Below are positions 11,377-13,338 of a DNA stretch of 64,000 nt, piece by piece. Position numbers and translations under genes: made by a program. Source of the stretch: Gemmatimonadales bacterium (GTDB lineage Bacteria > Gemmatimonadota > Gemmatimonadetes > Gemmatimonadales > GWC2-71-9); assembly GCA_041613315.1 (NCBI GenBank), contig JBFJHJ010000003.1, forward strand, positions 32,001-96,000, given 5' to 3'. The stretch's first letter is position 1. The number at the start of each line of letters is the position of its first letter. The notes below the pieces were generated by a model. It was not told the origin of the DNA. It worked only from the letters and a program-made list of their open reading frames with translations, and ran no database searches.

Positions 11377-11595
11377 CACAGGCCCGTCGCCCGGCTCGTC
11401 GCAGCGGCTCTTGGGACTGCTCGACCGCGGCGACAGGATCGCGGCCATCGTCGGGGCAGCCCATTTTGAGTTTGGGCGTGGTGTGGTGCCACCAAGATGT
11501 GTCAGCCACCTGTCCCATTTTGCGAACAAATGTGCCGGTTTCGGGTCGGAGGACAGGCCGGCCGTTTTGTCATGGTTGGTGTGATGTGCTGGTTT

Positions 11596-11640
11596 TACAA
11601 TGACTTACGTGAGATGGAACTTCCTGGCACGGAACTTCCT
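11596..11640 (+). promoter_or_regulatory. Candidate IHF site plus sigma54 (-24/-12) promoter
   Basis: CTGGCACGGAACTTCCT at 11624-11640 matches YTGGCACGRNNNTTGCW except G>C at -13; IHF-like TACAATGACTTA just upstream. Confidence 0.5.
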
Positions 11641-11648
11641 TATACGGT

Positions 11649-11777
11649 TGGCAAACAAGAAAAGTCTGCGGCGTTACTGAGCACCTTGCCGCCCGGCAAG
11701 TTCAAACTCGTCTGGAGGGGACGAGCGGGATCCCGCAAATGCCCGAGCTCAGTAGCGCCGCAGCTTTTTTGTCGCCA
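11649..11777 (+). ncRNA. Candidate structured small RNA, family unknown
   Basis: 17-bp closing stem 11666-11682/11747-11763 (one G-U), imperfectly extendable to 11649/11777; three internal hairpins; U6 tract at 11765-11770. Confidence 0.55.
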
Positions 11778-11934: not shown

Positions 11935-13338
11935 GTGAGCGCCCCTCAGGCGATTCCAGCCTTTCCGCAGCAGCTCGAGTGGGTGAACGTCAGCCGCCCG
12001 CTCACGATCGACGATCTCAAGGGCCGCATTGCCGTCCTCGACTTCTGGACGTACGGCTGAATCAATTGCCAGCACATGCTGCCGCAGTTGCGGCGGCTCG
12101 AGGAGGCGATCGGCGACGATGTCGTGGTGGTGGGTGTGCACGCCGGCAAGTTCATCGCCGAACGGGAGACGTCGCGGATCCGTCACGCCACGCGACGTCT
12201 CGGCGTCCGACACCCCGTGGTCAATGACCGGCAGTTCCGGATCTGGCGGGCCTACGGCGTGCAGGCGTGGCCCACGCTCGTGTTCGTGGCGCCCGACGGA
12301 AGCTACCTCGGATCGCACGCGGGCGAGGTTCCGGCGTCGGCGCTGATTCAGGCGGTGAGCGACGTGCGCGACGGCGTGCGGGACCAGCTCACCCGACCGC
12401 CGCTGCCGCTCGATCCTGAGCCGGCGGCCGGCGACGGGCTCCGCTATCCCGCGAAGATCGCGGCGCACGGTGGCCGGCTCTACGTGGCGGATACCGGCAA
12501 TGGTCGAGTTCTCGAGTGCGAGCCGTCTTCCGCGACGCTCGCGGTCCGCCGCGTGATCGGCGACGGGGTCTTCGAGGCGCCCCATGGGATGGCCATCGTC
12601 GCGGACCGGCTGTACGTGTCCGACCCGCCGGCACACCGTATCTTCGCCGCCGAGTTGGCCGACGGGTCCGCGGCACCCGCGGTGTCGGCCGTGGCGGGCA
12701 CGGGAGAGCAGGCTCGCGGCTGCCCGTCCGGCGCCGTCGCGGCCGCCAAGACCCCCCTCAGCTCGCCGTGGGACGTGGCCTCGCACGATCACACGCTCTA
12801 TATCGCGATGGCAGGAACCCACCAGGTGTGGGCCCTGGACCTCCGCACCGGAACGCTCGGACGGCACGCGGGGAGCGGAGCGGAGAGCATCGATGACGGG
12901 CCGCCGGCCGCGGCGACCTTTGCGCAGCCCTCGGGTCTCGCGGTGCACCAGGGATGGCTCTACGTCGCCGATGCCGAGTCCAGCGCCGTCCGCCGGGCCG
13001 GCCTCGCGGCCGACGGGACCGTCGAGACCCTCGTCGGGACGGGCCTGTTCGATTTCGGGGACCGGGACGGCACCGGAAACGTGGTCCGACTCCAACACGT
13101 GCTCGGTCTGGGCGTGTGGCGGAACGGGCTGGTGCTCGCCGACGCATACAACGACGCGCTCAAACTGCTCGACCCCACGCGCCGCAGCGTCCGGGCGCTG
13201 ACGCGCGGCCTCCATGAGCCCGGTGGCCTCGCCGTGGTGGGGGACGTCGCGTACGTGGCGGATACGAACGCCCATCGTGTGGTGGCGGTGGACCTCCAGG
13301 GAGGCGAGATGCGCGAGCTCACCCTGAACGCGTCATGA
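11935..13338 (+). CDS. Thioredoxin-like domain + NHL-repeat protein (NHLRC2/SOQ1-like), probable selenoprotein (Sec at TGA 12058-12060)
   Basis: Reading through the TGA gives ...LEWVNVSRPLTIDDLKGRIAVLDFWTYG-U-INCQHMLP...VGVHAGKF, then NHL repeats (LRYPAKI, LSSPWDV, FAQPSGL). Confidence 0.85.
12078..12097 (+). promoter_or_regulatory. Candidate bacterial SECIS hairpin
   Basis: GCTGCCGC-AGTT-GCGGCGGC: 8-bp stem, loop 25 nt downstream of the UGA, G at loop position 2. Confidence 0.65.

Follow-up and report, generated by a model that had tools for sequence, protein, structure and literature searches.

The window analysed here is a stretch of 64,000 nucleotides from a Gemmatimonadales contig (JBFJHJ010000003.1, positions 32,001 to 96,000). 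It includes a gap between recQ and a thioredoxin-NHL gene (11935-13338, + strand). In this gap, the original prediction had placed a structured RNA of no recognised family, with a sigma54-type promoter ahead of it and with sites that resemble those of an enhancer and of IHF. All motifs that it named were found at their places by a position check on the sequence, and covariation and promoter motifs in relatives support the description. The features of the locus are as follows.

11511..11528, + strand: predicted enhancer (bEBP) site TGTC-N10-AACA, lying 114 nt before the -24 box, with the second CCCATTTTG inside it
11595..11607, + strand: IHF-like site in an AT-richer stretch, matching 7 of 9 positions of WATCAR-N4-TTR (consensus from PMC3045617, available in part)
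11625..11640, + strand: sigma54-type promoter TGGCAC-N5-TTCC, with GG at 11626-27 and a non-canonical CC at 11638-39; predicted +1 at 11651
11651..11770, + strand: predicted RNA of about 120 nt with a four-way junction, from the fold and family covariation; both ends are predicted
11666-11682 with 11747-11763, + strand: closing stem P1, 17 bp including one G-U
11685..11700, + strand: hairpin P2, CTTGCC/GGCAAG, 6 bp, loop GCCC
11707..11725, + strand: hairpin P3, CTCGTC/GACGAG, purine loop TGGAGGG with the invariant core GAGGG
11726..11745, + strand: hairpin P4, CGGG/CCCG, from the minimum free energy fold and the alignment, 12-nt loop (ACCACGC plus a variable tail in the family)
11765..11770, + strand: U6 tail directly 3' of P1, seen in the sequence; together with P1 a predicted terminator

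The predicted 120-nt transcript folds with -63.4 kcal/mol (z = -7.02), and none of 200 shuffled sequences folded as well. For a 161-nt stretch, z was -5.25 on the + strand versus -4.03 on the - strand. The proposed pairing of the 5' and 3' ends over 17 bp and the U6 behind it were confirmed. An extension of this stem to about 30 bp draws on bases upstream of the predicted +1, but about 24 bp fit inside the transcript. Two of the three proposed hairpins stand as P2 and P3, whereas in place of the third, GCGG/CCGC, relatives keep CGGG/CCCG; an alternative GCG/CGC hairpin was discarded, as it showed no covariation. In most relatives P2 has 7 bp and a GCYN loop. P1 and U6 were not called by a simple terminator scan because its loop limit is 8 nt. 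Among the 37 sigma54-type loci, 22 have at least five T within the 10 nt after P1, and in 15 copies the T tail is weak, so that read-through into nfeD is possible.

The original prediction had recognised no known RNA family. We compared the window with the Rfam 15 covariance models, and nothing overlapped the element at E-values up to 10. On eight homologous loci (E up to 5), the only match touching the RNA was a chance-level overlap with a microRNA model (E 4.1). Identity with tRNA-Sec, tmRNA or SRP RNA was rejected, since those genes lie elsewhere (SRP RNA at another locus in 5/5 genomes). A called ORF overlapped none of 89 copies. A small ORF behind the Shine-Dalgarno-like (SD-like) loop was also dismissed, a start codon at usable spacing being present in just 9 of 121 copies.

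BLAST detected a second copy in the same genome and strong matches in four relatives. A covariance model built from nine copies matched 21 of 101 genomes of the same family, and a second model matched the same 21 genomes, with one to six copies each and two or more copies in 15 of them. In a MAFFT alignment of nine copies, which was not fitted to the model, 14 of the 30 predicted pairs showed compensatory change. Among 89 distinct copies, 95.2% of cells were paired with 320 double changes, a result equalled in 0 of 500 shuffles, and slid controls paired at 31-52%; a second set of 47 copies gave 93.9% and 192 double changes. Both sets had been aligned by fitting to the model, and a pattern that fixes P3 had supplied about half of the sequences. 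In the 89 copies, P1 changed on both sides in all 15 model pairs (94% of cells paired) and P2 covaried in 6/6 pairs (98.9% paired), which is strong compensatory change in both stems. P3 was paired in 96.3% of cells, but its covariation support is thin because the CTCG/CGAG stem is nearly invariant and the pattern scans also fixed P3. For P4, a few compensatory changes were seen in the alignment and also in a local parse of 73 of 78 representatives, in which misregistered rows contribute mismatches. Since P3 and P4 are nearly invariant, little covariation stands behind their pairing. Mutual information with APC correction in 78 representatives below 90% identity placed eight model pairs among the top nine, with P1 and P2 pairs first, and added a seventh, flanking pair to P2. 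Five truncated or poorly aligned rows (L174, L177, L183, L213 and L226) were dropped before this analysis and the strand counts. G-U outnumbered A-C 173 to 40 in the pairs, with the same bias in every promoter class. Therefore the + strand is favoured, as G-U pairs at the locus itself had suggested. The structured RNA at 11651-11770 is real and constitutes a new RNA family, absent from Rfam 15.

The invariant bases in stems and loops around a tight four-way junction might suggest an RNA that adopts a compact tertiary fold and acts in trans by catalysis or by binding a ligand. Yet no Rfam riboswitch or ribozyme matched, the mutual information analysis of the 78 representatives revealed no loop-loop tertiary covariation, and the neighbouring genes share no pathway, so that we consider this very unlikely. 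A ribosome decoy, in which the SD-like loop pairs with the 3' tail of 16S rRNA and parks 30S subunits under stress, would fit the GGAGGG exposed in a 7-nt loop in most copies, and also the finding that 112 of 121 copies lack a start codon at a usable distance. However, the part of the loop that never varies is GAGGG, and the G in front of it is replaced by T, A, C or a gap in many copies. Conservation is as high in the stem sequence and in the P4 loop, for which SD pairing has no need, and a long helix would be poorly placed in a short closed loop. The anti-SD decoy had been raised in the original prediction and remains a weak idea, and we regard it as quite improbable.

A pattern scan of the genome collection returned 85 stretches, and 49 of the 80 scored ones passed the model, 48 titled Gemmatimonadota and one from a 5-kb Myxococcota MAG contig that is possibly misbinned. 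The other 31 all came from outside Gemmatimonadota and either did not pass the model or had chance-level scores. From metagenomes, 46 of 48 pattern loci passed. In a sample of the phylum, 13 of 150 genomes carried the RNA: the source genome, 11 of 70 from its family and one of six from family f6, with 0/73 in ten other families. A deeper look at f6 yielded one clear diverged copy in 40 genomes (genome G170, L181 1501-1592, - strand), which keeps P1, P2 and P4 and has an altered P3. At syntenic sites, no diverged copies were found in 14 nfeD loci or, with filters off, in 18 of 19 argH loci. In an RpoN tree, a branch with support 100/99 separates the 17 carriers placed from 12 non-carriers of the family (12 of 80 placed) and two outgroups, one of which, G170, was labelled negative though it holds the diverged f6 copy. 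The family is confined to one branch among the genomes sampled. As each genome search scores a restricted set of candidates, distant homologues may have escaped detection.

Multiple copies in varied settings, an empty recQ-nfeD site in relatives and one tandem pair might also be explained by a short non-autonomous mobile element or a DNA hairpin, whose terminal inverted repeats would be P1. The tandem copies (L230, 579-674 and 835-929) lie 256 nt apart upstream of an nfeD-like gene, and the first of them has the sigma54-type promoter. However, variation is greatest at the termini and conservation is highest in the interior, the G-U bias indicates an RNA, and positions are common to several genera. 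In addition, searches of 72,556 plasmids and of 50,697 phages gave no match, and the one viral sequence picked up by the pattern did not pass the model. We give the mobile-element reading next to no credence.

The downstream gene lies on the same strand in 48 of 89 copies and is convergent in 35, while six have none. At least four conserved gene settings were distinguished. Recurrent settings have recQ upstream (15), nfeD downstream (21), a convergent argH (15), HlyD and then an ABC ATPase (8), a divergent HNH gene (7) or a divergent PadR gene (4). In two genomes (G031 and G065) nfeD follows recQ directly, and the promoter-RNA cassette is missing. The thioredoxin-NHL gene of the window has an in-frame UGA at 12058-12060 within a UxxC motif and a predicted 8-bp hairpin about 16 nt downstream of it, and tRNA-Sec is present on another contig (C24). 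It is likely a selenoprotein gene whose insertion separated the RNA from nfeD in this genome alone. Beside two argH-linked copies, c-di-GMP-I-GGC riboswitch matches were observed about 300-400 nt upstream on the other strand (L039 1913-1998 and L013 1889-1981).

An attenuator for the selenoprotein gene had been considered in the original prediction. This reading fails, because that gene follows only one of 89 copies (nfeD is the usual neighbour at this locus), 35 copies face a convergent gene, and recQ-nfeD also occurs without the cassette. More broadly, a cis-acting attenuator or riboswitch might serve the selenoprotein gene here and nfeD-floA or an ABC ATPase elsewhere, as would suit the 48 same-strand downstream genes, with nfeD after 21 copies and the ABC ATPase after eight, and the weak T tails. 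But such an element should always lie 5' of a same-strand gene of related function, and the neighbours are unrelated. Several of the convergent-facing copies own a terminator hairpin, 14 nfeD loci that were searched lack such an RNA leader, and no alternative fold is backed by covariation. Thus, cis regulation is extremely unlikely, and our data show that the RNA is independent of its neighbouring genes.

The GG of the sigma54-type box sets the predicted start at 11651. TGGCA(C/T) occurs 25-50 nt ahead of P1 in 39 of 130 distinct loci (0.43 expected), which supports the position of the box and the start proposed earlier; the -12 element, however, reads TTCC and not TTGC. In the sigma54 class (n = 39, any base allowed in the search) it is TTCC in 26 loci, TTTC in 13 and TTGC in none, so that the C is retained and the G is replaced by C or T throughout. 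GG-N10-GC was seen in one more copy (L051), whose -24 box is a variant. The source genome encodes a single ordinary rpoN and six full-length bEBP ATPase matches, and rpoN was present in all 30 genomes searched. Use of sigma54 is uncertain because the canonical -12 G is absent in 39/39 loci, despite four TTGC sites elsewhere in this genome. These four sites and the ordinary single RpoN argue that the change is specific to the promoter of the RNA. A lineage-wide change in sigma54 specificity was set aside as unlikely, as TTGC sites are present and RpoN carries ordinary HESTISR and ARRTVAKYR motifs. Altered -12 sequences were described to raise bypass transcription, with stress on the C, which the RNA promoter keeps (PMC4551910, available in part). 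In the window, GGAACTTCCT occurs twice in tandem at 11616-11640, just before the -24 box and as the right half of the promoter, and half-copies resembling it lie upstream in L045, L076 and L234.

Further upstream, (T/C)GTCC was found at 108-118 nt in 28 of 37 sigma54-type loci against 1.06 expected in shuffles, the motif having been picked from the same loci; the consensus of the site is TGTC-N10-RAC. The original prediction had pointed to two CCCATTTTG repeats. The second (11514) lies in this conserved site, whereas the first, 165 nt ahead of the promoter, falls outside the conserved position. The IHF-like site near 11596 was borne out by a looser motif, defined after seeing the data, in 23 of 37 sigma54-type loci versus 1.1 in shuffles. 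AT content is 51% around the site and 38% further upstream.

Other copies have other promoters. A SigW-like ECF promoter, GAAAC-N15-17-CGT(A/T), was detected in 47 of 130 loci where 0.06 were expected, and it matches the TGAAAC / CGTA elements of SigW-type promoters in B. subtilis (PMC5758882, available in part). In 23 of 46 SigW-like loci a further ECF-like motif lies upstream, and 44 of the 130 loci match neither main promoter motif. The source genome has one sigma54-type and one ECF-type copy. The latter (G000:C11:72051-72144; L043 1501-1594) follows TGAAAC-N17-CGTA, has its own terminator hairpin and lies near argH with a CHRD gene between them. The same genome has 12 TGAAAC-N15-17-CGTA sites, of which several lie shortly before apparent gene starts; they likely represent a SigW-like ECF regulon in the lineage. 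Four copies (L069, L100, L147 and L166) are divergent from a PadR gene, and their AT-rich promoter region may hold a PadR operator. Two of 125 rows, both from genus g2 (L062 1501-1592 and L171 1512-1603), are candidates for opposite-strand transcription, which would expose a CCCUCC loop. They carry a TG-extended -10 and a U6 on that strand and have no G-U excess on the usual strand.

These two copies bear on a function by base pairing, in which the GAGGG or ACCACGC loop would pair with C/U-rich stretches of mRNA leaders (for example freeing a hidden ribosome site) or with another small RNA, without a need for Hfq. The exposed loops are fixed in sequence, the sibling sRNAs Qrr and GlmZ work by pairing (PMC4211561, available in part), and the two opposite-strand copies would be natural antisense inhibitors. 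An antisense role of these copies is possible from their sequence, but it is not favoured energetically, because co-folding with sibling copies gains only 0 to -11.5 kcal/mol. In a crude single-genome scan of 2,350 predicted leaders, the best duplex (-42.4 kcal/mol) was no better than those of shuffled segments (-41.6 to -45.1), and loop complements were not enriched. Hfq was found in 0 of 5 carriers searched, and together with the lack of an outstanding mRNA target this weakens ordinary base pairing, which we consider fairly unlikely.

A protein partner was sought as well. A protein sponge had been suggested. CsrA was detected in 4 of 20 carriers versus 5 of 20 comparison genomes and was not found in the source genome (83% complete), which speaks against CsrA as the protein. 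Ro60 (TROVE) was seen in 0/20 carriers and 1/20 comparison genomes, RapZ in 0/5 carriers, and RRM in 1/3 carriers without co-occurrence. Since none of these searches gave a partner, protein binding is reached by exclusion. A replacement of 6S RNA by the new RNA was considered and not adopted. The Rfam model of 6S RNA matched 0 of 40 Gemmatimonadota genomes, carriers or not, in a search whose control detects just 5 of 14 known genomes; 6S RNA may be too diverged for detection in this phylum, or absent.

In Enterobacteriaceae, the paralogous sRNAs GlmY and GlmZ have a sigma54 promoter equipped with IHF sites and with an enhancer, TGTC-N10-GACA, which at the glmY promoter is the GlrR site, and GlmY is a protein decoy (PMC3045617 and PMC4211561, each available in part). 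The RNA described here shares with them, as far as predicted sites and the accessible text allow, a sigma54-type promoter, an IHF-like site and a nearly identical enhancer dyad at fixed spacing. However, it has another fold and no Rfam match, and RapZ and Hfq were found in 0/5 carriers. CsrB/CsrC and RsmY/Z are sibling RNAs with differently controlled promoters and one protein target (PMC4211561 and PMC6262261, each available in part). Here, too, siblings have different promoters and a GGA lies in a hairpin loop, but there is one such loop, the other GGA motifs being in or next to stems, and CsrA occurs in 4/20 carriers. The Qrr sRNAs are sigma54-dependent, and their pairing with mRNAs is aided by Hfq. 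In Vibrio, Qrr1-5 are multi-copy sRNAs at distant loci that are activated by LuxO and pair with mRNAs (PMC4211561, available in part). The new RNAs are likewise multi-copy and at distant loci, and they differ by paired ends, by siblings on different sigma factors and by Hfq not being found in five carriers. Bacterial Y RNAs (YrlA) have paired ends and a three-arm cloverleaf. Both are shared with YrlA and tRNA-like RNAs, but a T-loop consensus, a U-turn anticodon loop and an ARAGORN call were absent, and Ro60 was found in 0/20 carriers. The RNA resembles 6S and SRP 4.5S RNA as a stand-alone structured RNA of similar size with paired ends, but its fold is branched and not a rod, and SRP RNA is encoded at another locus in 5/5 genomes. 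Thus, the RNA family seems to act like known sibling sRNAs (PMC4211561, available in part) but belongs to none of these groups. A literature search aimed at Gemmatimonadota RNAs, in the accessible parts of the papers, returned none on such an RNA and no RNA-based regulation. Two motif surveys (PMC11109978 and PMC5737381, each available in part) do not mention the phylum in the main text, though their supplements could bear on this.

We propose that the element is a stand-alone sibling sRNA gene whose RNA of about 120 nt acts in trans, binding one protein via its fold and serving as its decoy or scaffold, an interpretation to which we give an even chance. A protein decoy or scaffold fits best because a variable paired frame is combined with a sequence-fixed P3-P4 region, in the absence of Hfq and of a target signal. 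A bEBP bound at the TGTC-N10-RACA site would, with the help of an IHF-type bend, activate the sigma54 polymerase. The RNA would end at the U tail after P1, and the paired ends would protect it. P1 and P2 may act as the frame, because their sequence varies freely while pairing stays, and P3, P4 and the loops may form the recognition surface, because P3 and P4 are fixed in sequence even inside stems. With siblings behind SigW-like ECF, second ECF-like or PadR-linked promoters, the total RNA dose could sum several signals, much like CsrB/C or GlmY except for a different partner. These are probably envelope stress signals, a link suggested by the SigW-like motif and by neighbours such as nfeD and efflux genes.

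It is tempting to go further and to propose an Hfq- and CsrA-free cloverleaf RNA hub, retained in all sampled members of one Gemmatimonadales branch, which would sum sigma54, ECF and PadR inputs on a protein or on the anti-SD tail. In this hub, a deliberately altered -12 would set the behaviour of the sigma54 copy, and the inverted sibling in one genus would be an antisense brake. We regard this as possible but doubtful. In any case, a natural sigma54-type promoter without GC at -12 in 39 loci is a test case for the tuning of activator dependence by the -12 element. Gemmatimonadota are common in soils and sediments, and for the RNA family a model is ready, the structure is well supported and the promoters can be tested. 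As Hfq and RapZ are absent in the five carriers searched and CsrA in most, the RNA should have either a novel RNA-binding protein as its partner or a novel way of acting.
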